Notes: generated by a model not told the origin, from the letters alone. Positions 3,342-36,546 are shown, counted from the stretch's first letter. The stretch: 36,546 bases of DNA from Methanolinea sp. UBA477 (GCA_002509485.1 DAWO01000072.1:5357-41902), one strand, 5' to 3'. Translations and numbers: made by a program.

Positions 3342-3660
3342 CAGGAATCTGTTTTGGCGTCATCAGATAAAAAAGGTATTTTCCGAGAGATCTCATCAAT
3401 CACTGCTCATTCCAGGCGGTATTCTCCACGATTGGGTGTATCACGATTCCGGGAAGACCCCTACGAAGCCGGAGGAAAAGCCGTATGATCGTGATGCCGG
3501 AGTGCTGGTGAAACTGACTGCCGCTGCTCCTTTCCCGAACAGCTGCGTGCGTTGCACAGTCCCATGATAGGTTTGATCCATGGCACGAGGACACGAAATT
3601 CACTCGTAAAAATGGGTTTTGCTCGTTCAACACGCGATGAAATGGAAAAACCACGGGATG

Positions 3661-3700
3661 TATTTATATACTATGAATTCATCATTGAGAATAAAGGTGG
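3661..3700 (+). promoter_or_regulatory. Candidate TATA box (TATTTATATA, 3661-3670) and SD-like site (AAAGGTGG, 3693-3700) for the giant surface-protein gene
   Basis: The A/T-rich octamer lies about 40 nt upstream of the ATG at 3706. GGTGG lies 5-6 nt upstream of that ATG. Confidence 0.4.
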
Positions 3701-3705
3701 CATTT

Positions 3706-14792: not shown

Positions 14793-15512
14793 TTACACAA
14801 TCCCAACGAGCGGTCCGTATACGATGACAATATAATACAATCCTATCACGATGAACACTGCCGCAACGACCAGTTTTACCCCCTTCTCCATCTTCTGCAC
14901 CACAGACATCATTCCTGATACCCGGTTTATCCCCTGCACGAGAACGAGGGAGATGATGATAACCGGGAGTGCGGTGGCAATCGCAAAGACGGCGGGAACA
15001 AAGAGTGCATCGCCGGTCTTCAATGCAATGGGAATGAGCATCCCGAAGAAGAGGACCGCAGAGAATGGGCAGAGGGCGAGGGCGAAGACGACCCCGAGCA
15101 GGAATCCCCCGAGATATCCCTTTTCTCCAAGATAGAGCTCGAGTTTCTGCAGCCAGCCGTGCCCCCTGGTACGTGGGATATCGACAATCTCCAGCATCAG
15201 GATTCCCATGACGACCAGGAACGGCCCGATGAGCTTCTCGCCATACTCCTGGAGGAAGAATGAGACGGCCTGGATGTTCAATCCCGCATAGACGATCAGT
15301 GCGGTAAGCCCGATATAGGCAGCCATCCTCCCGAGACTGTAGAGCGATCCGACAAGGAAGGTGTGCCGGCTGTCGCCGATCTTCCTGGAGATGAAGGCGA
15401 TCGCGGTGATGTTTGTCGCAAGGGGGCAGGGAGAGAAGGTCATCAGGAGCCCTATGAAGAACGCGGCGACCAGGGGAATTCCGCTGGTCCCGAGCGCCTC
15501 CATGCCGGCCAT
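14793..15512 (-). CDS. DsbD_2/CcdA-superfamily membrane protein, ArsG-like (putative thiol-relay or arsenical efflux permease)
   Basis: 239 aa with about six TM helices. Membrane-embedded Cys motifs are TFSPCPLATN and ALALCPFSAV. It lies immediately downstream of the ArsF-like gene (8-nt gap). Confidence 0.6.
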   Translation of the reverse strand: MAGMEALGTSGIPLVAAFFIGLLMTFSPCPLATNITAIAFISRKIGDSRHTFLVGSLYSLGRMAAYIGLTALIVYAGLNIQAVSFFLQEYGEKLIGPFLVVMGILMLEIVDIPRTRGHGWLQKLELYLGEKGYLGGFLLGVVFALALCPFSAVLFFGMLIPIALKTGDALFVPAVFAIATALPVIIISLVLVQGINRVSGMMSVVQKMEKGVKLVVAAVFIVIGLYYIVIVYGPLVGIV

Positions 15513-15520
15513 CAGGTCCG

Positions 15521-15991
15521 TCAGGAGAGGTCACCTGCCAGTCGCTTTTCGATGACCTCTCTGAGGTAGGTCATGTATTCGTCCCGGTCATCAAGCCTGT
15601 ACCATACCTTTATATCCTGCTCCTTGTGGAACCCGTCCCCGTCATACACACCGATCCAGATGGATGAGCCGGTTGGCCGGTATTTTTCCACGATCTCCCT
15701 GTTCTCAGGGAGATCGACGTTCACATGGGCAAACACGATCCTTCCGGAAGCCAGTTCGGGAGCAAAGTACGTATTCACCGTCTCTTCAGCATATTCGCCG
15801 AGTATGATGCAGGAGGTACATTGCCGGGTTGCATGAAAGTGGTAGACCTCTACCTTTTCCACTGCGCTGGATACATTATTCGCGGGGTTTTCGCTCTGTT
15901 CAACAGGAGTGGTGCATCCTGTGGCAAGTACCGCGAGTGCAACAACCAGCATGGCGACGGGTATCAGGAAAAATCTTTTATCGGTCTTCAT
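15521..15991 (-). CDS. ArsF-family-like CxxC lipoprotein (thioredoxin-like)
   Basis: 156 aa. Lipobox LATGC, then VEVYHFHATRQCTSC. This resembles proteins NCBI labels as the nitrophenyl-compound nitroreductase subunit ArsF family (from memory). Confidence 0.55.
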   Translation of the reverse strand: MKTDKRFFLIPVAMLVVALAVLATGCTTPVEQSENPANNVSSAVEKVEVYHFHATRQCTSCIILGEYAEETVNTYFAPELASGRIVFAHVNVDLPENREIVEKYRPTGSSIWIGVYDGDGFHKEQDIKVWYRLDDRDEYMTYLREVIEKRLAGDLS

Positions 15992-16376
15992 TGATCACAC
16001 TCCCCTCTCTTATTCCATTCCTGATTGCCTTGATGATGACCTGGCAGAGGCTCTCGATCTCATCGTACCGTGGCTCATCCATCCCGCGTTTGGTGATTCC
16101 TTCCCTTGTTGCGATGATGTATGCATCAGGCACCTTCCCGATCAGGTCCATCCTCTTCTTCGCACAGCATTCCTCGCATCCATCCACTGCGACAAGATAC
16201 TCGTCAGTATCAAGTTCCTTCTCCAGGGCGCGTTTGAGGGCGGTGAGCCGTACATGCCGGGAGACGAGGACCGGGTGCCGGCAATGGAGCGAATGCCCGG
16301 CCAGGGCCGTTAGTTGCCCGGTGTGGGAGATGCCCGAACAGGTCAGGAGGAGGACAGGCAGTTCTTCATCGGTCAT
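15978..16376 (-). CDS. DGC-domain putative zinc-binding protein (possibly ArsE-like)
   Basis: 132 aa. LLTCSGISHTGQL and VAVDGCEECCAKK (DGC motif). The start overlaps the arsC stop (ATGA). Confidence 0.65.
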   Translation of the reverse strand: MTDEELPVLLLTCSGISHTGQLTALAGHSLHCRHPVLVSRHVRLTALKRALEKELDTDEYLVAVDGCEECCAKKRMDLIGKVPDAYIIATREGITKRGMDEPRYDEIESLCQVIIKAIRNGIREGSVINEDR

Positions 16377-16795
16377 CCCGACTCCTCCGTTCCGAAGTAT
16401 TCATCAACCCACCTGGTGATCCTGTCCCGCACATCCCTGAATGTGGGAATAATCAACTCATCGGCCCCTTTCTCTCCCGTTGGATCCGGGAATTCTTTGT
16501 GCAGGGTCTCTTTTGCCCACGGAAAGAACGGGCACGCCGCCCGGGCAGAATCACAGAGCGTGACGGCCAGGTCCATCTCCAGCCCAGCGAACTCTGAAAG
16601 TGATTTCGAGCGTTGACCTGAAATATCAACGCCGATCTCCCGCATTACCTCAATTGCAATCGGATGAATTTGGGAGACCTCTGTCCCTGCCGAGAATGCC
16701 TCGTATCGATCGCCATACCGGGCCCGCAGGTATCCCTCGGCCATCTGTGAGCGTGCGGAGTTATGGGTGCAGATAAACAATACAGTCTTTTTCAT
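16373..16795 (-). CDS. arsC: Arsenate reductase, LMW-PTP family, thioredoxin-coupled type
   Basis: 140 aa. P-loop CTHNSARS near the N-terminus, with a downstream Cys pair in LCDSARAACPFF, as in pI258-type ArsC. Confidence 0.9.
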   Translation of the reverse strand: MKKTVLFICTHNSARSQMAEGYLRARYGDRYEAFSAGTEVSQIHPIAIEVMREIGVDISGQRSKSLSEFAGLEMDLAVTLCDSARAACPFFPWAKETLHKEFPDPTGEKGADELIIPTFRDVRDRITRWVDEYFGTEESG

Positions 16796-16844
16796 CTTTC
16801 GTCACCCATCACTTCACCTGTAATATCGTCTATCAACACAGTGT

Positions 16845-17003
16845 TCATCCTTTCAGTTTCTGATAGAGTGCCGGCAGCCGTTTCCAATACATTTCTTTGA
16901 TGACGGCTTCATCCTCACCGAGCGGGCAGACCGGGATGAGGTCCACGACCTGCTCGGGAGTCAGGGCCAGTTTCCAACTTGTTTTTCTGTCTGTTTTATT
17001 CAT
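16845..17003 (-). CDS. Small hypothetical protein (52 aa from ATG 17003)
   Basis: The ORF runs from 17048. ATG 17003 avoids overlap with the upstream gene. No recognisable motif, one Cys (VCPLGEDE). Confidence 0.35.
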   Translation of the reverse strand: MNKTDRKTSWKLALTPEQVVDLIPVCPLGEDEAVIKEMYWKRLPALYQKLKG

Positions 17004-17010
17004 ATACCCA

Positions 17011-18219
17011 TTAACCTCCCATGAATGTACTGATGAGGAAGACTCCAAGGCCGATCAATATGATCCCCATCACCACACGGACTGCCCTCCGGTTCTCCCG
17101 CCGCCAGCGATCAACCCGCTCAAGTGGGAGGCCCCAGGCAACGGCGGCGAGGATAAGGACCAGCGGAAGGACAAAGAAGACATTATAGATCAGCAGGAGC
17201 GGGATTCCCTGGAAGAGTGTCGTCTGGTCCGAGATCAGGGAGAGGATTGCGAGGTAGATGCCCCCGGTACAGGGCAGCTCGAACATCCCCACAAGCACCC
17301 CGAGAATGAGGGCGGCGGGAACCGATCCCATCTGGATGTAGCGCTCGATGATTCCTTTACGGGAAGCAGGAATCGCCAGGGATTGCTTCTCATCCTTCCG
17401 GAACGCGTCGTGGAAGCTCACCACACCCAGCACGATGGCGATGGCTGCAGCGATGATGCCGATGAACCGGGATATCTCTGCCGACTGGATGACGTAGAAG
17501 AGACCGAGGCCCGAGAAGAAGTAGAAGAGGAACACGGTGGAAATGTAGCAGACGCCCACCGTGAGCATCCTCGTCCGGGAACCCGCAGCAGTCAGGGTGA
17601 ACAGGAGGATGATCAGGACCGAGAAGGCGCAGGGATTGATCCCGTCGACCAGGCCGGCAGTCACTACCAGTGGAAGATTCAGGGACTGCTGCAGGCTGCC
17701 GGTATTCGGGGGTGCCGCTTGTGTGGGTGATGGAATAATTGTGCTCACAGCTCCTCCCCGCTGCGATTGCACTGCTTCGTCAAGCAGGGGTACTATCTCA
17801 TCATACCCGACAAGAGCACGGTCTCCGACAAAGAGTGAGGGCACAGGGATAGGTCCTGTCCCAAAAGCATCCTTGTAGTCATTGAAAAGCTGCCATGCAG
17901 CATTGCTCTCCCGTATATCGAGGAGGTGGCACTCAAGCTCCGGGTGATCCCCCACGAATTGCTGGATGTAGGGGAGTATCTTGAGACAATCCCCACAGTT
18001 GGTATTATAGAAGAATACCAGCACCGGCCCTTCTTCAGTAAACCGGTGATCGGGATGCAACGAAATCGGGGCGGTATTCAAGCCGGGAGGCACGGTTTCC
18101 ATCACGGGGAGATCGGCAGCTGATGCTCCCGGAAATGAGAGGAGGTAGAGGAGCAGGAGCACGAAACCAGATCGAATTGCCTTATTCGAAGAGATCCTGT
18201 GATCGTGTGTAATTGCCAC
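17011..18219 (-). CDS. Fusion of an extracytoplasmic thioredoxin-like domain (CGDC) with a CcdA/DsbD-type transmembrane thiol-disulfide transporter
   Basis: 402 aa. Signal/anchor LLLLYLLSFPGASA, Trx-like FFYNTNCGDCLKILP, then six TM helices with GINPCAFSVL and ELPCTGGIYL. Confidence 0.8.
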   Translation of the reverse strand: MAITHDHRISSNKAIRSGFVLLLLYLLSFPGASAADLPVMETVPPGLNTAPISLHPDHRFTEEGPVLVFFYNTNCGDCLKILPYIQQFVGDHPELECHLLDIRESNAAWQLFNDYKDAFGTGPIPVPSLFVGDRALVGYDEIVPLLDEAVQSQRGGAVSTIIPSPTQAAPPNTGSLQQSLNLPLVVTAGLVDGINPCAFSVLIILLFTLTAAGSRTRMLTVGVCYISTVFLFYFFSGLGLFYVIQSAEISRFIGIIAAAIAIVLGVVSFHDAFRKDEKQSLAIPASRKGIIERYIQMGSVPAALILGVLVGMFELPCTGGIYLAILSLISDQTTLFQGIPLLLIYNVFFVLPLVLILAAVAWGLPLERVDRWRRENRRAVRVVMGIILIGLGVFLISTFMGG

Positions 18220-18582
18220 TAAAAAGCTCCTGAAACTGTGTTAATCGGCCTCGTCCTCTGTCCGCGATGCATAAAGTGAAAGTAATTCAAGTATTATTGA
18301 AATCTTTGTTTATTGAGAATAAATACTTTTTCCGGGGCTTGAAATGGTCACATTGTCCCCCTGTCATCCGGTATCAGGGGCCGATCTCCTGTATACCTGG
18401 TAGAACCCGACGGCCAACCGCCAGGAGAAGGGTTGCAATAATAATTATCGGGAAATATTCTCTCATGAACCCGGCATATTTCATTACGGCCCTTTTCAGG
18501 TTCATGTTACCGTCCACACCAGTCGCGGTTTTCTATTCTCGCACCTATTCTGTTCATGTCTTTCATTGATCATCCACACTCG

Positions 18583-18837
18583 TCACAGCGACGAGCAGGA
18601 GCCCCCGTCCCCTCCCTTCTGCTGTTTCATAAACAGCGAGAGCGCGTCCTTGTCCCGGGAATGCGGGAGTGCCTTCTTGTCCAGGTATTCCATGTGGGTG
18701 ACGGTTGAAGGCAGTTCATCGATGGGGAACCCTACAATTACCTCACCGGGACCGATATCGGTTGCATCCCGGCATCCATAGCACCCGAAGTTGAAGTTGA
18801 GCCGCTGTTCGATGTAGGGAATAATCGTCGCGTCCAC
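18583..18837 (-). CDS. Hypothetical small Cys-containing protein (84 aa)
   Basis: The ORF starts 17 nt after the USP stop, on the same strand. It has GCYGC (CxxC) and a C-terminal GGDGGSCSSL. No family recognised. Confidence 0.45.
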   Translation of the reverse strand: MDATIIPYIEQRLNFNFGCYGCRDATDIGPGEVIVGFPIDELPSTVTHMEYLDKKALPHSRDKDALSLFMKQQKGGDGGSCSSL

Positions 18838-18854
18838 GCGGCTGATTCCCGTTC

Positions 18855-19703
18855 CTACCTCACCACCATCACGTGGGCGCCAGCCCGGTGCACCACCGTC
18901 TCGGTCACGCCTCCCAGGAGGGAACTCACGCTGCTGGTGCGACCCTTCGCCCCCATCACAATAATCGTAGGTTGGAACGAGTCCTCCACTGCCAGGATCT
19001 CATCGATGGCATTGCCGGTCACGAGCTCGGTCACGACCTGCGGAATGGCCAGGCTCTCAAACCTGGCTTTCAGATCCGCGAGCCTTTTCGCGTCTTTCTG
19101 GTTGAATTCCAAGATTTGATCCTGTGAAGTGGTCCAGAGGCGGCGGGTGTCCTGGACGTGCATGATGACCAGTTGATTCGGCTTTGCACCGGCCATCCAT
19201 TCGATGAAGGGGATGCATCGTTGGGCCTCGGCCGAGAGATCCGTGAGATAGAGGATGCGCTGGAAGATACGGGTGTTCAGTGTGCAGGTAGTGGGATCGC
19301 CTTCCTTCATAATTGAGATCCGGAGGATAAGGAGCGGGACCTGTGCCTGGTGAAGGACGTTCTCCGTCTGGCTCCCGAGAAGCATGCGGCTGATGAGGGA
19401 TTTCCCATGGGATCCCATCACGATGAGCGATGGCGGTGCCGCCTCTGCCCGTTCCAGGATTTCAAGCCAGGGGATTCCTTTGGCAACCTCCACGTTCACA
19501 TCGGTCACCCCGCATGCTTCCATCCGGTTCTTCCAGTCATTCAGCATTTTTTGATCGCGGGCAAGGAGACCCGCATCAGTTGCTTCAACATACAAGAGTT
19601 CTACCCGCTTCACACCGAGACGGGCAATCTCCTCGACGGCAGGGACCATCGCCCCTGCAGCGCCATGTAATTCCAGCGGAACTAACATCGAATCTTTCAT
19701 CAT
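18855..19703 (-). CDS. Tandem universal stress protein (2 x UspA domain)
   Basis: 282 aa. Two copies of the USP C-terminal signature: [34 protein letters not shown] and [34 protein letters not shown]. The start overlaps the ACR3 stop. Confidence 0.85.
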
Positions 19704-20779
19704 AATGGTTCACCTTTATACATTCCCTGCGTCCGCAGACAGATCTTCACCAGCATCAGCATCACCGGCACCTCGATCAGGACACCGACGACCGTCGCAA
19801 GCGCCGCGCCCGAGCCCAGCCCGAAGTGGATGGTCGCCGTGGCAATGGCCACCTCGAAGTGGTTCGAGGCCCCGATCATCCCGGCAGGTGCAGCGTCCCG
19901 GTAGGGGAGCTTCAGCCAGCGGGCGAGGACAAAATAGCCGAGAGTGAAGATGAGCACCGTCTGGATGAAGAGGGGGATTGCGATCCAGAGGATGGTCGCC
20001 GGGTTCTCTACGATGACGTTCCCCTTGAAGGTGAAGAGGAGGACGAGCGTTCCGAGCAGCGCGACAATCGAGACCGGGGTGAGCAGGTGCAGAAACCGAC
20101 TCTCGAACCACGCCATCCCCTTTTTAGCGATGATCCACTTCCTGGTAACATACCCTGCAACCAGCGGAAGGGCGACATAGACCGCGACCGAGAGGAGGAT
20201 GGTCTGCCAGGGGATGGGCATGGCGTTCACCCCGAGGAGGAAGCCGCCGAGCGGGGCGTAGAGGACGAGCATCGTGAGGGAGTTGATGGCGACCATGATC
20301 AGGGTGAGACCATCGTTTCCCTTCGCAAGGTAGCTCCACATCAGCACCATGGCGGTGCAGGGCGCGATGCCGAGGAGGATGCACCCCGCGACATAACTCC
20401 TCCAGAGCTCGACCGTGGTCCCGTCAGCAAGCACCTCGGTCCCGGGAATGAGTGACACAAAGACATATCCCAGGAAGAACGTGGCGATGAGGTACATCGT
20501 GAACGGCTTGATAGCCCAGTTGACAAAGAGAGTCATTGCCACCGGTTTGGGGGTGCGGGCTGCTTTCAGCACTTCGGCAAAATCGATCTTCACCATGATG
20601 GGGTACATCATGAAGAAGAGGGCGATCGCGATCGGAATCGAGACCTGGTAGACCGAGAAAGAATCAAGTGCTACGGCAACGCCGGGCGCAATCGCTCCAA
20701 GAGCGATTCCGGCAACGATGCACAGCGCAACCCATACCGTGAGGTATTTCTCAAAGGTACTCAGGCGGCGTTCGGTCAT
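19700..20779 (-). CDS. acr3: ACR3-family arsenite efflux transporter
   Basis: 359 aa with about 10 TM helices. N-terminal [12 protein letters not shown], the conserved Cys in GIAPCTAMV, and NHFEVAIA. Confidence 0.9.
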
Positions 20780-21161
20780 GGTCCCACATCTCTGATGGCA
20801 GCACGCCTGATCAAATCGGCAGGAATTTTCTCATACATCTGGTCTCCGCAGACGAAAGCCCGGCATTCGGTATCATTTTTTGTCATGAATGCGCAGAAGG
20901 GGAAGGATCTCGTTTCGATCCGCACCTCGTCGAAAAGATCACCGAGAGGAATCGGTTGAAGGAGAGGGTGTTGGACTCTCCGATCTTTTCGTGGAAGGGG
21001 ACCATTTCCCTGACCCTGATCCGTATCCTTCGTGCCGAGAATATCGGACGGATCTCCCAAAAGACTTCCTTCAGAGGCCGGACAGTCGATGAACACCGCT
21101 CGCAGGTCGCATCGACGCTCTCTCCGATGTGCCACCATTCAACATTGAGGGCATCTGTCAT
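20776..21161 (-). pseudogene. DUF2703-like ars-associated protein, split by a 1-nt frame offset
   Basis: The N-terminal half is MTDALNVEWWHIGESVDATCERCSS...ESNTLSFN, in the frame of ORF 20883-21305. The C-terminal half is IPLGDLFDEV...[23 protein letters not shown], in the frame of ORF 20776-21138. The junction is at about 20950-20957. Confidence 0.7.
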
Positions 21162-21174
21162 GGTTTCTCGCCGT

Positions 21175-21639
21175 TCAGCAAGAGCCGTCGCAGCCGCAGC
21201 CGCAGCCGCTTCCCGGTTCCGGCGCGGCCTTTTTATTTTTCCCGGCATCCGCCCATCTCCCTGCCCCAGCCCAGCAGGCCGCAACGACCTTCTCGATATC
21301 GTCATCGCTATAGGATTTCGAAGGTCCTTTTACGATCCCGAGCTCAGTCATGACGAGGTGCTGCCCAATGGGGACGCCTTGGGCTTCGGCGATCTTTTTT
21401 GCACAGACCATCGGACATCCGTCAAGGATAACGACTTCATCAACGTTCTTCGCACTGGCGACCAGTCCTTCTGATCCAATCGCGAGCAGGGATGCACCGG
21501 CGATGCTCCCGAATCCTTCCTCTGTTAACTGGAGAGCCGCAAGGTTGGTGATCTGCCCGGTGTTTGCCTGTCCCGCACAGGGAAAGATGATCCGCCTCTT
21601 CTCGTTCTGCCCGCATGTGCAGATGGGAGTGTCGGCCAT
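21175..21639 (-). CDS. DGC-domain putative zinc-binding protein with a Cys-rich C-terminal tail
   Basis: 154 aa. FPCAGQANTGQI and VILDGCPMVCAKK. The tail is GSGCGCGCDGSC. Confidence 0.7.
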   Translation of the reverse strand: MADTPICTCGQNEKRRIIFPCAGQANTGQITNLAALQLTEEGFGSIAGASLLAIGSEGLVASAKNVDEVVILDGCPMVCAKKIAEAQGVPIGQHLVMTELGIVKGPSKSYSDDDIEKVVAACWAGAGRWADAGKNKKAAPEPGSGCGCGCDGSC

Positions 21640-21640
21640 T

Positions 21641-21880
21641 TCAGGTACCTCCGGTAAGAATACGCTTTATTTCGGCAACATCTGCGACCCTGCCCGATAC
21701 CTTGAGTTCCCCGTCGACCATCATCGCAGGGGTGAGCATAATTCCCCGGTCCATGATCGCGGTGATATCTTCTACCTTCTGGATATCCGCACTTATTCCC
21801 AGTTCGGCAACTGCCTTTTCTGTATTCTTCGTCAGTCGTTTGCACTTCATGCATCCGGTTCCGAGAATTTCTATCTTCAT
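21641..21880 (-). CDS. Thioredoxin-fold redox-active disulfide protein 2-like
   Basis: 79 aa. MKIEILGTGCMKCKRL (CxxC) and TPAMMVDGELKVSGR are typical of the small Trx-like partner of DUF318 permeases. Confidence 0.8.
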   Translation of the reverse strand: MKIEILGTGCMKCKRLTKNTEKAVAELGISADIQKVEDITAIMDRGIMLTPAMMVDGELKVSGRVADVAEIKRILTGGT

Positions 21881-22137
21881 GATTTCACCTTTTTTTCATA
21901 TTCCCTGAGCAGGGCGGATCGGTACGCCGCTTCCGCCGCTTTCGGGACATAATTATAGACTTTTACTCGTTTCAGCAGTTCTTCTGCGATCGAATCTTTC
22001 GCGGTGAGACGCAACCCTTGCACTTCATCGATGATATCATCGAGCATCGCGAGCCCTACTCTGATGCCGCCGACATCCACCTGGCGGATGCGGCGCAGCG
22101 CTTCTGCCGCACAGCATGGTTTTTCTTTTCCAGTCAT
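21877..22137 (-). CDS. Hypothetical 86-aa protein with an N-terminal vicinal Cys pair
   Basis: ATG 22137 lies 17 nt after the permease stop, and the stop overlaps the next start (ATGA). The sequence begins MTGKEKPCCAAEAL. The longer track ORF (to 22557) would overlap the permease. Confidence 0.55.
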   Translation of the reverse strand: MTGKEKPCCAAEALRRIRQVDVGGIRVGLAMLDDIIDEVQGLRLTAKDSIAEELLKRVKVYNYVPKAAEAAYRSALLREYEKKVKS

Positions 22138-22154
22138 GTTGTTTATCACCTCTT

Positions 22155-23225
22155 TCAAAGGAACAGTCCATAGGCTGCACCCGCAAAGGCCGAGAAGACG
22201 ATCACAAGCACTGCATAGGTGGCGGTCTTTCTTGCGCCCATAATCCGGTACAGGACGAGGAGGGACGGGAGGCTGACAGTCGGGCCAGCGAGCAGCAGGG
22301 AGAGTGCCGGGCCGCCTGCCATAAAGCCATTCAAATAGCCAAAAGTCGTTCCGATGACCGGCACCTCGAGGAGGGTCGGCATGTAAAGGATTGTGCCGAC
22401 GAGGGAGGCGAGCAGGCAGGAAAGGAAACTGTTCGACCCGAAAAACGGCCGGAATGTCTCCGGAGGCAGGAAATATGCAAGCATCCCCAGGAAGAACGTT
22501 CCCACTACAAGAATAGGAAAGATCTTTTTGGTAAGGTCCCAGGTCTCGTACCCCCACTCTGTGACCTCATCACGCTCGAAGAAGTAGAGCAGGAGATACG
22601 CCGTTCCAAGGGTGAGCGCATAGATGATGGGGAACTTGATCAGCCAGTCTAGTTTCGCCGTACCCGCGAGGAGGATGCCGATGAGAAGAACAAAGAAGAG
22701 GGGGACGATCCAGCGGGGCCGCTCCGCCTTCTCGCCAGCCGGAACTGACGGCATGAGTTTCATCTTCTCTCTTGTCTCGGTATCATACGAGCGGAATAAC
22801 GCAGCCATCAAGAGGCCAATGGCGACAGCCATCACGATGGCAAATACTGCCCTTGCAAGCCCGAGTTCGAACCCGAGCACTTTTGCCGTATAGATGATTG
22901 CGAGGATGTTGATGGCCGGCCCGGCATACAGAAACGTGGTGGCCGGCCCGATCCCGCTCCCACGCTTGAAGAGACCGGCAAACATGGGGAGGATGGTGCA
23001 GGAGCATACCGCCAGCACCGTTCCCGAGATCGAGGCCAGACCATAGGCAATTGACTTTGGCGATTCCGGGCTGAAATATTTCAGGATTGCTTCCTTCTTG
23101 ATGAACGCAGCAATGGCCCCCGCGATGAAGAAGGCCGGTACAAGGCAGGTGAGCACATGCTCTGCAAGGTACTCGGCCAGGGTTTCCCAACCCAGAAGGA
23201 GGGCGCCGATTATCGGATCGGCCAT
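22155..23225 (-). CDS. DUF318 / ArsP-type permease
   Basis: 356 aa, polytopic. The membrane Cys motif is AVCSCTILPMF. It is followed by the Trx-like protein, as is common for this family. Confidence 0.75.
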   Translation of the reverse strand: MADPIIGALLLGWETLAEYLAEHVLTCLVPAFFIAGAIAAFIKKEAILKYFSPESPKSIAYGLASISGTVLAVCSCTILPMFAGLFKRGSGIGPATTFLYAGPAINILAIIYTAKVLGFELGLARAVFAIVMAVAIGLLMAALFRSYDTETREKMKLMPSVPAGEKAERPRWIVPLFFVLLIGILLAGTAKLDWLIKFPIIYALTLGTAYLLLYFFERDEVTEWGYETWDLTKKIFPILVVGTFFLGMLAYFLPPETFRPFFGSNSFLSCLLASLVGTILYMPTLLEVPVIGTTFGYLNGFMAGGPALSLLLAGPTVSLPSLLVLYRIMGARKTATYAVLVIVFSAFAGAAYGLFL

Positions 23226-24086
23226 CAGAACACCCCACCTGACCTTGAATGGTGCATGTGCATCCCCCTGCTGACAGAAAACCGTGAATCTCTTTCCGTG
23301 AGATCGCGGGATTGGATAATTGCGGGGATGGCACTCTTCGAACGACGCGTCAATTGAGGTTTCATACCAAATCTGCTCATTTGTTGTATCGCATTAACAG
23401 CCGTGACAGAACATGACGACCACTGATTCCTCCTTTTTTACCCTGATTTTATCAGTTGTTTCAAATCTACTTGAAATAAGTACTGCGGTGTACATAATCA
23501 AGATTGCGGAAGTGACAAAATCTGGCTGTTATGAGATCCACAGACAAACTTCTTCAATTTGGCTGAAAGACGTATCTTCAGGCTCAAGGGCGGAGACAAA
23601 CCCATCTTTTGATCCCTGCCACCAATACTGAAGCCGGGCTTTTTTAGATCCTGGATCCGGCAGATGGATCTTCATGCTGTTTTCAACCGCCTTTTTCGCC
23701 ACATTAACAAAGATCCAGCCGGTCCCTCAAAAACGGGGAGAGAGAGGATTCAGGAACCGTACCCACTTCTTCCTGACATCCGCATATGTGTCTCCGATAA
23801 AGGGATAGAAGGTGCTCCTTCTGCTTCGAAACGCAATCATCGCAGAGGAACACATTCCCATACCTCTCATGATTGACCCGGATAAACCGTGTGCCGGGCT
23901 TTCCGCATAGACCACACTGCATGCTCATTCTTCTTTGGTAAAATCCTCGATCTAATCTACTCGTCTCATCCTGTCATTTTTATCAGGTTCAAATATGCCT
24001 TACTCCAATTAGTCACAACTCCCAGTGAAATTGGTACAATCCATTGAATCGTATTTCATACTGTGTGAGCCCCCATATTCCACCAT

Positions 24087-24842
24087 TCATTCGACTGTGA
24101 CCGCTTCTCCTCCAATATATCCATAGAAGAACGCTGCAACGACCGCACCGACTATTGGACCGATAACGTAGATCGGGAAGTACACCCAGAGGTCCGGTCC
24201 GCCGAGCAACGAATCTATCAGGTAAGGACCGAAAGTACGGGCTGTATTCAGGGATGAGCCGGTGAGGTTGCCGATGGTGGTGATCACTCCTCCCACCGTC
24301 AGACCGATAACAAGCCCGGCAAACCCCTGTGGCGCTTTTTTATCCACCGCAACACCCATTATAACCATCATCAGGACAAAGGTGCCGATAGCTTCCGCGA
24401 GGATAGCCTGACCGTAACCTATCCCCGGGAATGGGGCAGTTGCGCCGAGTCCGCCCACCGTGACCGCGTCCATGCCGGCACTTGCGGCAAAGAGCAGGCT
24501 ACCGAGTGCACCTCCTATCAGCTGGGCAACAATGTAGGCGCCGGTCTCTCCGGGGGGAAACCTCTTGGTGGCCCAGAGCGCGATGGTCACTGCAGGGTTG
24601 ATATGGGCACCCGAGACCCTGCCCATGGAATAGATGACTGCAGCGATCACAATGGCGAACGCCATCCCGATGGCGAACCAGTCACCGAGCCCTCCCAGGG
24701 CGCCGATCCCACTATTGAATGGCGTGCCGGTATCAGTCCCTCGTGCAATCATAAGCGTGATGGCTGCGGCACCTGCCCCGAAATACACGAGGAGCGCAGT
24801 CCCGGTAAGTTCTGCAATGCAACGCTTTGCGAGATCGCTCAT
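24087..24842 (-). CDS. MIP-family channel (aquaporin/aquaglyceroporin-like) with NPA and NTA motifs
   Basis: 251 aa with six TM helices. SGAHINPAVT is the first NPA. The second motif reads SSLNTARTFGP, encoded by AAT ACA GCC on the minus strand at 24248-24240. Confidence 0.85.
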   Translation of the reverse strand: MSDLAKRCIAELTGTALLVYFGAGAAAITLMIARGTDTGTPFNSGIGALGGLGDWFAIGMAFAIVIAAVIYSMGRVSGAHINPAVTIALWATKRFPPGETGAYIVAQLIGGALGSLLFAASAGMDAVTVGGLGATAPFPGIGYGQAILAEAIGTFVLMMVIMGVAVDKKAPQGFAGLVIGLTVGGVITTIGNLTGSSLNTARTFGPYLIDSLLGGPDLWVYFPIYVIGPIVGAVVAAFFYGYIGGEAVTVE

Positions 24843-24846
24843 CGTC

Positions 24847-25056
24847 TCACTTCCCCTTTAGCGCATGGTAGCACTCGGGACAGAGTATCCGCGGGATCTT
24901 TGCCTTCACCCTCCGGGCCGGGAAGGGATAGCCCCCTTCCCACATATCGAGCTCTTCGCGCATGGCATGTTCGGTACAGAGCCCCATGCCGCAGATGATG
25001 CCGACCGCAACGGCATCCGGGGAACGCCCTTCCTTCGCACAAACATAACATTTCAT
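24847..25056 (-). CDS. Small Cys-ribbon protein, DUF2180-like
   Basis: 69 aa. MKCYVC, CGMGLC and CPEC give three Cys pairs. It lies 4 nt upstream of the MIP gene. The family name is from memory. Confidence 0.55.
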   Translation of the reverse strand: MKCYVCAKEGRSPDAVAVGIICGMGLCTEHAMREELDMWEGGYPFPARRVKAKIPRILCPECYHALKGK

Positions 25057-25081
25057 GGCTTTTCACCTGAATTTTGACAGT

Positions 25082-26581
25082 TCATACCGCTTCCTTCCAC
25101 TGGCAATAACAGTGCCGGAAGTCCATCAGCGCTGCCGATGCACAGTCCTTGCAGATCCTGGCCGGGGCCGCTGCGACCTCCTTGTGCAGGGCAATGATAT
25201 TGGTCATCAGGGTCGCGGTGACCGGCTCGCTCGTCAGGAGACACGGGTAGTCGGCGAGACGGAGCATCGCAGATGCACGGACCGTGATAGCGCAGGCAGG
25301 GTAGGCATACCGCTGTGGGTTCATCAGCACCTCGTTCTCGTGGATCGGCGAGAGGTCAATCTCGAACCCGGCAACTTTCGGTTTCAGCATGCCGTCCTGG
25401 CCATTCTGTCCTCTCCGTGCCTTGTCTACATACTTCCAGCCCCGGTAGATCATGTCCATGAAGTCGCAGTTATGCAGCTCGGCTGCCGCCCCTCTCCGCG
25501 GGTAGAGCTGGACATAGTTATGCCACCTCTTGGTGAGGAGGTCCACCACCATGATGGCGTTGAACCCGTCCAGCTCAAGCAGATATTCGGCAGCGCATGC
25601 CGACGCCCCGGTAGCGAGTGAAAGGATATCGTACTCGTTCTTGAACTTCGGCACCGCCTTTGTCAGGTTCCGGTCCATCACTTCGGTTGCGGCCTCGATG
25701 GTCGCCATGATGACGTCATCCTTGCACATGTTGAATGTGGACTGAGCGATATGGTGTGCGATGTCTCCGACACAGTAGGCGGGGATGGTGACGATATTCC
25801 CGTAATGGATATCATCATCGATCGCTGCCCTGACTGTGGACTCCATCTTCTTCCGGTATCCGGCCATGTACTTCCTGCAGTCGAACGAGGTCATGCCAGC
25901 ATCGTCCATCAGCCGAGCCTGGGTCTCGACCGGCTCATCATAGATCGCCTGGAGCGTCGTTATCTCGGCCTTCACCGCATCGGCAAGAGTGGCGCCCTTT
26001 TCGGTCTCATGGGCAAACACCTCGCCTATACCGTAGGACGTGTTCATTCCCCACGACTTCGAGGCAAGGATCGCCTGTTTATGCGCTACGGGGATATCCA
26101 CGGTCTTAAGGATCTGGTTGACCACGTTGCTGGTGCTCCCGGGGATGAGCGCAAAGTCCACCACACAGGTCGGGCCATAGAATCCCGCATACCGGCGAGC
26201 AGATTCCCGGCCGATCAGCGCCTCGGACTTTCCGATCGCTTTCACAAATGCATCGACGCTCTTTCTGAACGCATGATCCTGGTCATACAGGATCTCCAGG
26301 ACAACCGGTGTCTGGTAGTGCTCTACGAAGGGATCGTCCTCAGGCCTTACGGTCTTTGTCAGCCCTTCGAGGACGTCGAAATGGGCTTCGACCGAACTGG
26401 TATGAAGATCGAAGACCGCCTTGGACTGGTCCCCGACTGGCTTCATCTTGTTCACGGCATCAAGGTACACCCTGGCATCGTCGACGACGAATGGCTGTCC
26501 CCGTTTCTTCTTTATGGCCCCTACGTCTGCCCTCTGGGCAGCCATCGCTTCGTCAATCATCTTTTTATAGAGTTCTTTCAT
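25082..26581 (-). CDS. Large uncharacterised archaeal protein, DUF2193-like
   Basis: 499-aa intact ORF with no catalytic family I can name. C-terminal Cys cluster is CKDCASAALMDFRHCYC. The family name is from memory. Confidence 0.5.
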   Translation of the reverse strand: MKELYKKMIDEAMAAQRADVGAIKKKRGQPFVVDDARVYLDAVNKMKPVGDQSKAVFDLHTSSVEAHFDVLEGLTKTVRPEDDPFVEHYQTPVVLEILYDQDHAFRKSVDAFVKAIGKSEALIGRESARRYAGFYGPTCVVDFALIPGSTSNVVNQILKTVDIPVAHKQAILASKSWGMNTSYGIGEVFAHETEKGATLADAVKAEITTLQAIYDEPVETQARLMDDAGMTSFDCRKYMAGYRKKMESTVRAAIDDDIHYGNIVTIPAYCVGDIAHHIAQSTFNMCKDDVIMATIEAATEVMDRNLTKAVPKFKNEYDILSLATGASACAAEYLLELDGFNAIMVVDLLTKRWHNYVQLYPRRGAAAELHNCDFMDMIYRGWKYVDKARRGQNGQDGMLKPKVAGFEIDLSPIHENEVLMNPQRYAYPACAITVRASAMLRLADYPCLLTSEPVTATLMTNIIALHKEVAAAPARICKDCASAALMDFRHCYCQWKEAV

Positions 26582-26677
26582 TTGATTTCACCTTCGAAAC
26601 ACCACCCTGGAGAGTTTTCCTTGTTCGGAGAGGTGTTAATTGTCCAATACCTTCCCCATGATATATCAATGTTGTTC

Positions 26678-26685
26678 AAAAAAAA
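26678..26685 (-). terminator. T8 tract (minus strand) downstream of the FTR-like gene
   Basis: A plus-strand A8 run sits 110 nt after the FTR-like stop and upstream of the TGATATATCA element. Confidence 0.4.
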
Positions 26686-26795
26686 GTTGAATTGGATTTT
26701 CTACCGGCTTACCCTTCAGAAGTCATACGTAGTTTATCATCCAGGGGATGAAGAAAGGGGGATACATTTTTTAGTTCCATGCCCTGTTTTGCTTT

Positions 26796-27122
26796 TCACG
26801 GACCTGGCCCGAAGAAGAGATTGCAGTGGCAGTGACCGTCTTTGATGACCTCGTCCTGGTGATAGATACAGGGACAGATGATATCCTGACCTTTTTCCGG
26901 GTCACCGCTCCGAATCCGGCACGGACAGTACGGTTTTCCGAATCTCTTGCAGTTCCGGACAAGACCCCGAATAACCAGATCCAGGACACGGGAATCGGGG
27001 TTGAGTTCCCAGCCATGGTCCTCCGCATATCCTGCAGTTGCTCGGTGTATCGCCTCTTCAAGCTTCCCGGAATCTGTATCGGGATCACAGGGTACGTGAA
27101 ATGATTTCACCGTTGGCATCAT
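26796..27122 (-). CDS. Ferredoxin:thioredoxin reductase catalytic-subunit-like protein
   Basis: 108 aa carrying the CPC...CPC...CHC signature (YCPCRIRSG, IICPCIYHQ, GHCHCNLF). GGAG lies 6 nt upstream of the ATG. Confidence 0.85.
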   Translation of the reverse strand: MMPTVKSFHVPCDPDTDSGKLEEAIHRATAGYAEDHGWELNPDSRVLDLVIRGLVRNCKRFGKPYCPCRIRSGDPEKGQDIICPCIYHQDEVIKDGHCHCNLFFGPGP

Positions 27123-27175
27123 CCATTCTCCGGGTAAAACTGTTTATAGGAAAAGATATTTTATATTTGTTTGAA
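27123..27175. promoter_or_regulatory. 53-bp divergent promoter region with two TATA-like elements
   Basis: TTTATA at 27143-27148 lies about 30 nt before the arsR ATG at 27176, which implies a leaderless or very short leader. ATTTTATATTT at 27158-27168, read on the minus strand, lies about 40 nt before the FTR-like ATG. Confidence 0.4.
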
Positions 27176-27580
27176 ATGTCCAATCAACAGCCACGCTCCC
27201 GGATGGTGCTTAAAGATGTGGGGGATCTCTCAATTCCGAAGGAGATCGCAGACTCTATCTGTTCATGCGGGGGCGTCGAGGGCCTGATCGAGAGTCTCCC
27301 GCCCGATGATTCCATAGAGCGTATGCAGAGGTGGTACCAGGCCTGTGCAGATCCCGTCCGTCTGAAGATCCTCTCCCTGCTCATGGTCCGGCCGCTCTGT
27401 GTCTGCGTGATCAAGGCGGTGCTTCAGATGGCCGACTCAAAGCTCTCGTACCACTTGAACATCCTGAAGAAGGCCGGGATGATCAAAGGGGAGCAGCAGG
27501 GCTATTATATCATATATAATCTCACAGACCAGGCGCGGATGTTTCTCGAGAGGGAGAGAGAACGTTTTTCATCCAGCTGA
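27176..27580 (+). CDS. arsR: ArsR/SmtB-family metalloregulator with a CVC motif
   Basis: The start is placed at ATG 27176 (134 aa). ADPVRLKILSLL, PLCVCVI, SKLSYHLNILKKAGMI and an extra N-terminal CSC. Confidence 0.85.
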   Translation: MSNQQPRSRMVLKDVGDLSIPKEIADSICSCGGVEGLIESLPPDDSIERMQRWYQACADPVRLKILSLLMVRPLCVCVIKAVLQMADSKLSYHLNILKKAGMIKGEQQGYYIIYNLTDQARMFLERERERFSSS

Positions 27581-27624: not shown

Positions 27625-28023
27625 TCAGGTATTTTTTGCCATCCGTGCAATCTCTTCAGGCTGCAGTCCTGCACATCGATCATCGGTTGCCACGGATGCC
27701 ATCAGATCTTCATCAGCCTCGAGGACGGAGGTGAGATCCCGGACGAATGCACGGAGGGGGGGGTTATCCGGAAGAGCTTTGCTGTAATACATCCATTGAC
27801 CCTCCCGGCGGGCATTCACAAGACCTGCATGGCGGAGCACGGTCAGATGACGCGAGACCTTTGTCTGGGACATCCCGAGGGCGACCTGTATCTGGCAGAC
27901 GCAGATCTCGCCCTTTCCCAGCAGAAGATAGATTCGGAGCCGTGTCTCATCCGAGAGGGCCTTAAAAATTGTCGTATAGGTGTGAAGACCCGGGGCATCT
28001 GTTCGTTCCGTGCGGTCTTTCAT
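27625..28023 (-). CDS. arsR: ArsR/SmtB-family metalloregulator with a CVC motif and an extended C-terminus
   Basis: 132 aa. LSDETRLRIYLLL, EICVCQI and TKVSRHLTVLRHAGLV. It lies 40 nt downstream of the permease gene on the same strand. Confidence 0.85.
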   Translation of the reverse strand: MKDRTERTDAPGLHTYTTIFKALSDETRLRIYLLLGKGEICVCQIQVALGMSQTKVSRHLTVLRHAGLVNARREGQWMYYSKALPDNPPLRAFVRDLTSVLEADEDLMASVATDDRCAGLQPEEIARMAKNT

Positions 28024-28063: not shown

Positions 28064-29263
28064 TCATGCAATAATCCCTGAAACCTGGATAAGCTGGAAC
28101 GCGACTCCGGTGATAACTGCGACTCCCAGGATTGTGATGACGAACGCCGCGACCAGCCTTCGCTCGAAGATAGAGGCAAGCAGGGTAACTTCGGGTATGC
28201 TTGCTCCCGCACCTCCAATAATAAGGGCCATGATCGCACCGATTCCCATCCCCTTTGCAAGGAGCACGGCGCTGATGGGGATGATCGTCTCTGCCCTGAT
28301 GTACATAGGAATGCCGATGACAGCGGCAACCGGGATAGCGAGGGGATTATCGGGGCCGGCAATACCGACAATCAGGTCTTCGGGAACAAACCCATAGATA
28401 AAGGCCCCTATTGCGGCTCCCAGGATAAGGTAGGGCAGAACCTGCCGGAAAAGCGACAGGGCAAACCTGGAGGCGGACCGGAACCTGGTGCGATGGATCG
28501 AGGTATCCGAACCCTCCCGGGATTCGGGTGGGCCCTCGGGATTGGGGACCGTTTCAGAGCCGCACGAACACCCGCCTGTGACCAGTTTCAATCCGGTTGA
28601 GGTGATCTCCGAACTGCTGGCAACTGTTGAAGGGGATGTATTTTCGGAGCAACAGGTGGCTGGTGAAGGCGACGTGTCTTCGCAACAACCGGAACTGACC
28701 GGTGGGGGTGAAGGCGTCTCCTGACAGCAGGTGACCGGTGCGACTGGCACCGGACTGGAGGCGCATGAACATCCGATAGATGATTCTGCAGCGGCTGAAT
28801 GGTTTTGCCTGCCCGCTATAACCGGTTTCACAAAACGCAGGTAATTTCGGCGTTCAAGGGAAAGTCCGGCGAGGACTGCGATACAGAATGTCATGACGCA
28901 GTACATGAGAGTCAGTGACGGGCCGAGGAAGGCAAGGATCAGGAAGACGATGACCGGGTTTAGGAGGGGTGATGCGAAGAGAAAAGCCATGCACGCCCCA
29001 AAAGGCACCTTTGAGTTGATCAGGCCGACGAGGAGAGGAATCGTGGAGCAGGAACAGAATGGGGTGAGCGCCCCGAAGAAGGCACCCATCGCTGTCCCGG
29101 TAACCCGATGCCTGGTGGAGAGCGTTCGCCTGATCTTCTCTTCAGGAACGTATTCCTGGATAAGACCCACAAAAAAACTGACTGCGATAAAGAGAAGGAC
29201 CAACTCTGCGGTGATGATAAGAAAAAATTCGCCTGCAGTGAAGAGATCGTTGATAGCTGTCAT
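28064..29263 (-). CDS. DUF318 / ArsP-type permease with a Cys-pair-rich central loop
   Basis: 399 aa. The TPFCSCSTIPL motif sits in an early TM helix. A hydrophilic loop of about 110 aa carries CSC, 3 x CC and CSC. Confidence 0.75.
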   Translation of the reverse strand: MTAINDLFTAGEFFLIITAELVLLFIAVSFFVGLIQEYVPEEKIRRTLSTRHRVTGTAMGAFFGALTPFCSCSTIPLLVGLINSKVPFGACMAFLFASPLLNPVIVFLILAFLGPSLTLMYCVMTFCIAVLAGLSLERRNYLRFVKPVIAGRQNHSAAAESSIGCSCASSPVPVAPVTCCQETPSPPPVSSGCCEDTSPSPATCCSENTSPSTVASSSEITSTGLKLVTGGCSCGSETVPNPEGPPESREGSDTSIHRTRFRSASRFALSLFRQVLPYLILGAAIGAFIYGFVPEDLIVGIAGPDNPLAIPVAAVIGIPMYIRAETIIPISAVLLAKGMGIGAIMALIIGGAGASIPEVTLLASIFERRLVAAFVITILGVAVITGVAFQLIQVSGIIA

Positions 29264-29508
29264 TATAATATTACTATAATCGAATATTCAAATATACTTA
29301 TCTGTTCATTCCTTCCGAAATTTTTTTGAGAACCATTCCTATACTTTCATGCCCTGGCGGAGATCCTGGCGCCGCAAACTGATCCGATTGAGAATGAGGG
29401 ATATAGCGATCGGTTCATGAAAGCATCTCAAAACAGCTCACAGAAAAATGTTCGCCCTGTCCCTTCATTCCGCAAAGCCTAATTCTTTTCAATTCCCAGG
29501 AATCAGGT

Positions 29509-35339: not shown

Positions 35340-36546
35340 GGTGAGGGAAATCAATAATCACCCATTTCCCGGATCAGGTTCTTTTAGCACAATAGCAGTC
35401 TCCTTAAAGATCTTCAAGATTTCTTCCAACGTGACAACTGAAGGAATTCTCACTTTGACCATTTTGGCTGGATTGTGGACATCCTCACCCTTATGGTTGA
35501 AGAATTCATCATTAGTAATCAGATGCCAGATAAGAACGGCAATTTTACGGGCCAATGCAATAATAGCCTTTCCTGTACCAATGATTGGCTTCTTACGATC
35601 ATAGAACCTGCGAAAATCATTATCATGACTTCTTGCAGCCGCATGTGCAACCTGAGTGAGGATTCACCGTGCATGTTCGGATCCTCTCTTCGTGATCGAT
35701 CCAGTTCTCAGTTTATCGGCAGATTGGTAAACATTCGGTACGATCCCCAACCAACTTGCGAGTTTATCACCTGAAGGAAAATCAGAGAAGTTTCCAATTT
35801 CCGCAATCAATGTAACGGCTGCGATGTTTCCGATTCCAGGAACAGATTTGAGAATCATCATCTCGTGGTGAAAATTCTCTTTAGCAAAGTGTAAAATTCC
35901 TTTCGTGAGAGCATCAATCTCTTCATTCATGCACTTCAGCAGATTCAGACAGTGTTTGAGACGAAAAATCGCACCGGGGGATATCGTTGTTTGAACAATC
36001 TCATTGAGTTGATCTGTTTTCTTACGATACGAGGGGGAAGCATTTCAATCACTTCATCCATCGGCATCCCGTTGACAAGGGCCTGAAGAATCAACGTTCC
36101 ACTCTTCCCAAAAAGATCTGTGAGTACAGATGAGAGGCGAAATAATTCTGAATCCAGGATATGGTGGATCTCATTTTTAATATCGGTTCTTTTCTGAACC
36201 AATTTATGGCGAAGTCGTACGAGAGACCTAAATTCACGGTGTTCCCGCGGAAATACCCGGGAGGGTCGGATCATCCCTTTCAGGGCAAGTTGTGCAATAA
36301 GTTCTGAATCTACTTTATCGGTCTTTTTATGTGAAAACATCTTGATATCACGGGCATTTCCGACAATTACCGTAACATGACCTTCCAGCATATCATAAAC
36401 CGGTACCCAGTAATCACTCGTTGATTCACATGCAACTATTTCACATTTGTTTTCTATTGTCCATTCCTTGAGCGCAAGAAGTCCATATTCAGTCCGTTCG
36501 AACCTTTGTTGTTTTTTTAGCCCTGTATCTGATAGTACTGTTGCAA
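35340..36546 (-). mobile_element. IS110-family insertion sequence remnant (boundaries unresolved, truncated by the window end)
   Basis: It contains the transposase pseudogene. The composition is visibly more A/T-rich than the flanking hydrolase gene. No terminal inverted repeats are expected for this family. Confidence 0.6.
35358..36546 (-). pseudogene. IS110-family transposase, degraded (one frameshift, one in-frame TGA), N-terminus beyond the window
   Basis: The N-terminal DEDD-like part (36546-35945) includes ACESTSDYWVPVYDML and VIVGNARDIK. The middle part (35930-35664), in another frame, includes SVPGIGNIAAVTLIAEIGNFSDF. The in-frame TGA at 35664-35666 is followed by ILTQVAHAAARS...ARKIAVLIWHL. 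Confidence 0.8.

Follow-up and report, generated by a model that had tools for sequence, protein, structure and literature searches.

AqpM, a channel of the MIP family, has served as a structural model since 2003-2005. Passive MIP channels usually have a fixed genetic neighbour, a cytoplasmic protein that gives direction to the flux, as in the GlpF-GlpK pair, and one of them is part of an arsenic resistance (ars) operon, arsR-aqpS-arsC-arsH of Sinorhizobium meliloti. The locus described here lies in a stretch of 36,546 nucleotides from Methanolinea sp. UBA477 (DAWO01000072.1, positions 5357-41902; hereafter the window), in which three consecutive minus-strand genes encode a DUF2193 protein, a DUF2180 protein and a MIP channel (Table 1). 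As for the first of these families, the protein of Methanococcus voltae (Mvol_0354) binds one [4Fe-4S] cluster per subunit through a C-terminal CX2CX6DX2(H/C)X2C tail; it is a tetramer in the apo form and a monomer in the holo form, and 91% of its methanogen homologues adjoin a MIP/aquaporin gene (Dieter et al. 2025, PMC12375889). The same protein reaches a 13-fold higher level on pyrite than on Fe(II)/sulfide, and its C-terminal motif is found in a COG2122 ApbE-like protein to which a part in sulfide assimilation has been ascribed (Payne et al. 2022, PMC9431491). The two main parts of the module and their pairing have thus been in print since 2025, and the suggestion of an earlier annotation, made from the DNA alone (the sequence-only reading), that the module was undescribed does not hold.

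Regarding its identity, the locus of the window is almost certainly a conserved archaeal aqpM operon. The three genes are tightly packed, with gaps of 25 nt between DUF2193 and DUF2180 and of 4 nt between DUF2180 and MIP, at exactly the coordinates first given for them, and the Pfam assignments agree with the families that had been described. The first protein matches PF09959 (DUF2193) with 913.6 bits (E 3.5e-275, cutoff 25), its residues 2-499 covering positions 1-498 of the 498 in the profile; the second matches PF09947 (DUF2180) with 120 bits against a cutoff of 22 (E 4e-35); the third matches the MIP profile (E 9e-45) and exceeds the cutoff of TIGR00861. NCBIfam has no model for DUF2193 or DUF2180. 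The DUF2193 tail, C477-KD-C480-ASAALM-D487-FR-H490-CY-C493, conforms to the published cluster-binding motif, and its three cysteines are strictly conserved in the family, together with the Asp/His positions. The window protein is 72-92% identical to homologues from Methanoregulaceae and Methanothrix, the best matches (89-92% identity) coming from metagenome-assembled genomes (MAGs) of Methanolinea and Methanoregulaceae; as far as sequence can tell, it is the orthologue of the M. voltae [4Fe-4S] protein. The family is small, with 168 clusters (at 50% identity) among 1.84 billion representatives, about 14 of them full length, and it is well conserved, the bacterial and archaeal members being 59% identical and those of the deeper branches 53-61% identical to the window protein.

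The conservation of the gene order was assessed by a scan of one genome per species, which gave 438 loci with a DUF2193 relative, 80 of which were fetched; the downstream order was counted in the 73 loci with at least 1.1 kb of downstream sequence, and neighbours were clustered using all open reading frames (ORFs) of at least 90 aa at 91 loci from 18 lineage groups. DUF2180 and then MIP follow on the same strand in 67 of the 73 informative methanogen loci, MIP only follows in one, and five are solo Methanoregula paralogues. In the unbiased clustering, MIP is linked to DUF2193 at 79 of 91 loci and in all 18 lineage groups, which bears out the proposed pairing; no other family occurs in more than about five of the 18 groups, no ars family recurs across them, and no one-carbon (C1) genes recur beside the archaeal trio. 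The full trio is also present in Methanothermobacter, the genus in which AqpM has been characterised, and in Methanocorpusculum. In Methanocella, Methanoperedens and a Thermoprotei MAG, an AqpM-like MIP gene comes directly after DUF2193 and DUF2180 is missing; the same two-gene order, again without DUF2180, occurs in four genera of Peptococcaceae: Desulfitobacterium, Ca. Formimonas, Desulfosporosinus and Dehalobacterium. Because MIP is the only partner linked in 18/18 groups and DUF2180 is missing in the deeper branches, the core unit is DUF2193 plus AqpM, to which a single large clade of methanogens has added DUF2180. The three genes of the window form a conserved unit with a promoter-like region of their own, so that the separate transcription unit first proposed for them stands.

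Methanoregula genomes carry several DUF2193 copies (among the surveyed loci L025, L034, L043, L044, L066, L018, L029 and L041/L054/L080); some of these paralogues are solo, two loci have a truncated MIP ORF, and one MAG contains three complete trios.

As for the channel, GlpF has a Trp/Gly/Phe/Arg selectivity filter, and the AqpM pore is reportedly of intermediate size. In phmmer searches, the window channel matched AqpM of Archaeoglobus fulgidus (3NE2) with E 1e-108 and AqpM of Methanothermobacter marburgensis (2EVU/2F2B) with 2e-99; the closest proteins other than AqpM were AQP4 (6e-24) and GlpF (about 1e-22). Its aromatic/arginine (ar/R) filter, F62/I187/S196/R202, is the Phe-Ile-Ser-Arg set of the reference AqpM (PMC6912568 and PMC3287591), and all the MIPs linked to DUF2193 keep F/I/x/R. 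These features mark the channel as the AqpM orthologue and place it outside the GlpF/AqpS-type aquaglyceroporins; the aquaglyceroporin model Gla gives 65 bits against a cutoff of 400. The initial assignment to the aquaglyceroporins was therefore abandoned, as AqpM is by far the closest relative and the wide filter is absent. The first box is NPA and the second NTA; the latter occurs in 18 of 64 related loci and is thus a clade variant rather than a defect. The AqpM-type filter was at first taken as a bar to As(OH)3, and this argument was withdrawn as too strong.

The AF2 model of DUF2193 (pLDDT 78.7, pTM 0.82) is all-alpha, with a disordered C-terminal tail (pLDDT below 50). Foldseek of this model against the PDB found nothing below E 0.1 (TM below 0.15), a PDB sequence-profile search returned noise only, and no known enzyme fold can be assigned because both searches were null; the structure comparison that had been suggested as a check thus left the model without a confident match to any known enzyme in the PDB. 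Owing to the strict pairing across domains, the absence of any other conserved neighbour and the published apo tetramer, which matches the AqpM tetramer, we infer that DUF2193, as a soluble protein with a [4Fe-4S] cluster on a flexible C-terminal tail, would be the dedicated cytoplasmic partner of AqpM. It may sit at the cytoplasmic mouth of the AqpM tetramer and either trap the permeant as a sink or gate the channel according to the iron-sulfur/thiol state, and the core job of the module would not be metalloid-specific. Three candidate permeants have partial support, namely sulfide or Fe-S species, neutral C1 species and As(OH)3.

The first candidate corresponds to the hypothesis already published, iron-sulfur/sulfide acquisition and trafficking, with which the reactive-sulfur alternative of the sequence-only reading agrees: H2S or small Fe-S species would pass through the channel and be taken up by the three-Cys [4Fe-4S] tail of DUF2193, which would also report the Fe-S status. 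The pyrite response of the M. voltae protein, its [4Fe-4S] binding and the tail shared with the COG2122 ApbE-like protein all favour it, and three strict cysteines plus Asp/His would fit a cluster with one free iron site. However, A. fulgidus AqpM did not facilitate H2S passage and lipid bilayers are freely permeable to H2S, according to the accounts of Mathai 2009 given in PMC3287591 and PMC6912568; the pore radius, about 1.4 A, is too small for Fe-S clusters, and the Peptococcaceae operon described below is left unexplained. This function is a tentative possibility, clearly less likely than not.

In the four Peptococcaceae (L085, L086, L090 and L091), DUF2193 and the AqpM-like MIP are the first two genes of an operon preceded by a DhaR/AcoR-like activator gene and by a sigma-54 promoter; three loci have TTGGCAT-N5-TTGC at -55 to -65, and the remaining one has a GG-N10-GC variant. 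The next genes encode beta-RFA-P synthase, a dihydromethanopterin-reductase-like flavoprotein, a DHPS-like protein and DUF447, and further genes encode Mpt_N (methylene-H4MPT-dehydrogenase-like), an ATP-grasp protein and FwdD/B/A-like proteins. Gene content links the DUF2193-MIP pair to tetrahydromethanopterin (H4MPT)/methanofuran C1 metabolism in these bacteria, and the pair may handle small neutral C1 species (formaldehyde hydrate, possibly CO2) that feed or drain the pathway. Consistent with this proposal, all the archaeal hosts of DUF2193 use the pathway and the bacterial ones encode it; on the other hand, the archaeal trio has no recurrent C1 neighbours, the bacterial operon may reflect a single transfer because the four hosts are related, and no biochemical hint ties DUF2193 to C1 chemistry. 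Literature searches found no paper describing the bacterial H4MPT/Fwd cluster. Overall, a C1 role is rather unlikely.

Two details of these operons were recorded apart. FwdB is encoded in two pieces of 111 and 284 aa, with the break possibly at a selenocysteine codon, and a GC-rich stem-loop, GGGGCAGG ... CCTGCTCC, is conserved in the gap between MIP and the next gene (L085 8408-8569, L086 8365-8505, L091 3053-3186); it could be a terminator or an attenuator, and an Rfam scan of the window and the four bacterial loci gave no match.

Regarding arsenic, the trio of the window is enclosed in a genuine ars island of 14.5 kb (about 14.8 to 29.3 kb of the window), larger than the metalloid surroundings first noticed, with ACR3 (386 bits, cutoff 283), ArsC, ArsF/G (ArsG: 261 bits, cutoff 200), two ArsP and two ArsR. 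The part downstream of the trio encodes, in order of increasing coordinate, ArsG, ArsF, DGC, ArsC (thioredoxin-type), DsbD_TM, Usp and ACR3, and then a frameshifted DUF2703, a second DGC, an MTH895/ArsE-type thioredoxin, a small ORF and an ArsP_1 permease; the AqpM trio, a gene for a protein like the catalytic subunit of ferredoxin-thioredoxin reductase (FTR), the two ArsR genes and another ArsP_1 permease follow.

The promoters also connect the trio to the island. The window has three copies of the inverted repeat TTCAA-N6/7-TTGAA, where 0.36 would be expected, a count reached in 0 of 100 shuffles, and each copy stands ahead of one of the island's minus-strand transcription units. About 30 nt are common to the promoters of DUF2193 and ArsP, made up of the palindrome, GAA(A/C)CAAC and a TGATAWAWTCA TATA-like box, and both palindrome sites are kept at orthologous positions in L002, L003, L004 and L011; in L006, a Methanoregula locus with a different arrangement, the palindrome stands ahead of ArsP, ArsR, ArsF and DUF2193. 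Of the 12 loci with ars-type neighbours, five have a copy within 400 nt upstream of DUF2193, compared with none of the 75 other loci (Fisher p 2e-5), figures that come from phylogenetically non-independent loci since the palindrome is confined to one clade and L006. On this pattern, the trio looks wired into the ars regulon in the Methanolinea-like lineage and not in most lineages, and, given the same palindrome in the promoters, an ArsR-type regulator probably derepresses it together with the ars operons.

It does not follow that the module itself deals with metalloids, as the sequence-only reading had supposed. In that proposal, AqpM would conduct As(OH)3/Sb(OH)3 like AqpS, and the cysteines of DUF2193 and DUF2180 would serve to bind or process the metalloid. 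The local context supports it: besides the enclosing island and the shared promoter, the arrangement is kept in L002-L004 and L011 and recurs rearranged in L006, ACR3 directly follows MIP in L013, ArsC and ArsR are nearby in L077, and AqpS offers a precedent. As a general function it is not supported, since MIP linkage is universal whereas an ars-type neighbour is found in only 12 of 87 DUF2193 loci, and in none of the deep branches. Moreover, the filter is not W/G/F/R, AqpM of M. marburgensis, a water channel, conducts glycerol poorly (PMC6912568, PMC3287591), the island already has the active ACR3 pump, and loci that lack ars genes can have the NTA variant too. A dedicated metalloid module is accordingly unlikely.

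The best reading is a general channel and iron-sulfur-partner module that this lineage has wired into its ars regulon. Taken as a joint claim, functional partnership of DUF2193 with AqpM and co-regulation of the module with the ars island at this locus are somewhat more probable than the contrary. Several points weigh against it. The contact between DUF2193 and AqpM is putative, and candidates alone can be named for the physiological permeant; five Methanoregula paralogues of DUF2193 stand alone without MIP, so that the protein does not need an adjacent channel gene in order to occur; an enzyme would account for the 59% bacterial-archaeal identity and the invariant polar residues no less well than a gate would; the palindrome has the narrow distribution given above, and its protein binder is putative. 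Lastly, the authors of PMC12375889 also raise nucleic-acid binding by DUF2193: the recombinant protein co-purified with Escherichia coli RNA polymerase subunits, Hfq, CRP and ribosomal proteins, and they liken it to FNR and IscR. DUF2193 would then be a cytoplasmic redox/Fe-S-sensing nucleic-acid binder, with the channel gene as a regulated target or a bystander. Against this, neither Pfam nor the AF2 model and Foldseek detected a DNA-binding domain or fold in DUF2193, a protein of 499 aa with 59-92% identity and a fixed order upstream of MIP in both domains is unusual for a transcription factor, and the bacterial operon already has its own sigma-54 activator. Such a regulator is very improbable.

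A bolder form of the partnership is that AqpM and DUF2193 make a gated conduit for small, neutral, thiol-reactive hydroxylated solutes. By means of a cysteine-lined cavity and the Fe-S tail, DUF2193 would serve either as cytoplasmic sensor and gate or as trap, and different lineages would have plugged this conduit into different detoxification regulons. This form is distinctly improbable. If it were true, Methanolinea-like archaea would use the conduit for As(OH)3, controlled through an ArsR-type operator, and Peptococcaceae for formaldehyde hydrate, controlled by a sigma-54 activator alongside the genes of H4MPT/methanofuran oxidation; AqpM would gain a physiological substrate class, and the complex would be a new kind of regulated aquaporin.

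As for DUF2180, the third member of the trio, it has a zinc-ribbon-like C3xxC6 ... C59xxC62 pattern and a second Cys/His site (C22, C27, H30); in an alignment of 31 homologues, the family set is C3, C6, C19, C22, C27, H30, C59 and C62, and the window protein has seven of these eight residues. The AF2 model (pLDDT 91) shows a long beta-hairpin with the CxxC...CxxC zinc-ribbon-like arrangement. Foldseek of this model gave weak, non-significant matches (E about 0.5) to the zinc-ribbon proteins eS26/eS21, which are suggestive of the fold class only. DUF2180 may be a metal or electron adaptor. The literature searched does not name it, and the M. voltae DUF2193 papers are silent about it, the supplementary neighbour list of PMC12375889 aside. 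Residue 19 of the window protein (24999-25001, minus strand) is Gly, where 29 of the 30 other aligned homologues have Cys and one, P0337, has a deletion; a single-base change, GGC versus TGC, would explain the difference.

Table 1. Features of the aqpM operon and of the ars island around it; positions are counted from the first nucleotide of the window.
Feature	Position	Strand	Remarks
DUF2193 gene	25082..26581	-	499 aa; ORF call and Pfam
DUF2180 gene	24847..25056	-	69 aa; ORF call and Pfam
MIP channel gene	24087..24842	-	251 aa; ORF call and Pfam
GGTGA, ribosome-binding-site-like	26588..26592	-	6 nt upstream of the DUF2193 ATG
TATA-like box TTGATATATC (gene strand), coinciding with the perfect palindrome	26659..26668	-	about 87 nt upstream of the DUF2193 ATG
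Inverted repeat TTCAA-N7-TTGAA, operator-like	26675..26691	.	T8 tract as spacer; directly upstream of the TATA box
Second palindrome copy	23460..23475	.	upstream of the ArsP-Trx-DGC-ACR3 unit
Third palindrome copy	18286..18301	.	about 74 nt upstream of the DsbD_TM gene, then ArsC, DGC, ArsF, ArsG
Part of the ars island downstream of the trio	14793..23225	-	Pfam, NCBIfam
FTR catalytic-subunit-like protein, CPC/CPC/CHC	26796..27122	-	Pfam FeThRed_B, E 6e-22
ArsR/SmtB regulator with CVC	27176..27580	+	HTH_5, NF033788; divergent from the FTR-like gene
Second ArsR/SmtB regulator with CVC	27625..28023	-	downstream of the ArsP_1 permease 28064-29263; Pfam and NCBIfam

Upstream of DUF2193, the palindrome TGATATATCA and the T8 tract (26678-26685 on the gene strand, an A8 run on the plus strand) are both where the sequence-only reading had placed them. 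TT[GA]ATATA is kept at the same position (about -87) in L001-L004 and L011, and the perfect palindrome is not kept in these relatives; TGATATATCA was rejected as an operator because conservation is limited to its TATA-like core. The T-run may also terminate the FTR-like gene. Relatives carry GGTGA or GGGGGA at the same place ahead of the DUF2193 ATG. A scan for sigma-70 promoters and intrinsic terminators gave hits at chance level, the models being bacterial and uninformative for an archaeal host.

The motifs read from the DNA, that is, the CKDC...CYC tail, the NPA/NTA boxes, the FTR-like CPC/CPC/CHC and the CVC of both ArsR proteins, were all found again. Among the surveyed loci, the FTR-like gene is upstream of the trio in L003, L004, L009, L011, L012 and L013 only, all closest relatives, and neither this gene nor ArsR was retained as a conserved partner of the trio because both are confined to such relatives. 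The ORF of the first ArsR can be read from TTG 27038, where it overlaps the FTR-like gene, and its true start is likely the ATG at 27176.

Other observations concern the island and its flanks. Just downstream of the palindrome and TATA box of the ArsP operon there is a strong Shine-Dalgarno sequence, AAGGAGGA (about 23395-23430, minus strand), followed by a 9-codon ORF, MVVMFCHGC, about 170 nt ahead of the ArsP start, which may be a Cys-containing leader peptide. A 19-nt imperfect palindrome with TTGAATATTCGA at 29270-29301, just upstream of the second ArsP_1 permease gene, has half-sites that resemble TTCAA-N-TTGAA in reversed order. Between MIP and the ArsP promoter, a 74-aa Cys-rich ORF (CGLCG ... 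CDDC ... CGC; 23704-23928, minus strand) had no Pfam or NCBIfam match and no tblastn match in the fetched loci, and it may be spurious or lineage-specific. The DUF2703 gene (20776-21164, minus strand) consists of two overlapping ORFs in different frames, covering positions 1-68 and 71-120 of the profile, and the frameshift appears to be either a pseudogene or a sequencing error. Farther away, a giant ORF of 2785 aa (3619-11976, plus strand) probably encodes a surface protein, which contains a DUF7948 domain, beta-propeller repeats and 21 PKD repeats, and an IS110-family transposase fragment (DEDD_Tnp_IS110; 35945-36391, minus strand) lies near the end of the window.

Concerning its significance, AqpM is almost never encoded alone: in methanogens, relatives of anaerobic methanotrophs (ANME) and some Firmicutes its gene is accompanied by that of a dedicated iron-sulfur protein and, in most cases, by that of a zinc-ribbon protein too. 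The question of its role becomes testable in terms of complex formation, channel gating and the solute trapped, and the two lineage-specific recruitments, into the ars island and into the Peptococcaceae sigma-54 H4MPT/methanofuran operon, supply candidate conditions and solutes. For annotation, a DUF2193-DUF2180-MIP run is best taken as an aqpM operon and not, by default, as an arsenic channel. Four points were not found in the published papers, as far as these were covered: DUF2180 as a conserved third gene (with the exception made above for the supplementary list), the identity of the channel with AqpM proper, including that of Methanothermobacter, the embedding in an ars island with a shared palindrome, and the Peptococcaceae sigma-54 C1 operon.

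In conclusion, the locus can be set beside four known systems. With the M. voltae DUF2193 protein, the window protein has in common the Pfam family from end to end, the length, the numbering of Cys139/270/372/447/477/480/493, the tail motif and the adjacent MIP, whereas the module of the window lies in an ars island with a shared palindrome and the published papers give no ars linkage. Like the channels of AqpS/GlpF type, the MIP is embedded among ars genes, probably under ArsR-type control; it differs from them in clade and filter, AqpS has no DUF2193/DUF2180 partners, and the AqpM trio has no ars neighbours in most genomes. The GlpF-GlpK, PduF-Pdu and LarD-Lar systems share with it a passive channel gene fixed beside a cytoplasmic protein able to direct the flux, although DUF2193 has no recognisable enzyme fold or cofactor site beyond the Fe-S tail. 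The structurally defined AqpM channels (2F2B/2EVU, 3NE2) align with the window channel over nearly the full length, with an identical filter and an identical first NPA box, and differ from it in the second box, which is NTA in the window; published AqpM work treats the channel as a lone protein, whereas in the window and in Methanothermobacter it is the product of the third gene of a trio.

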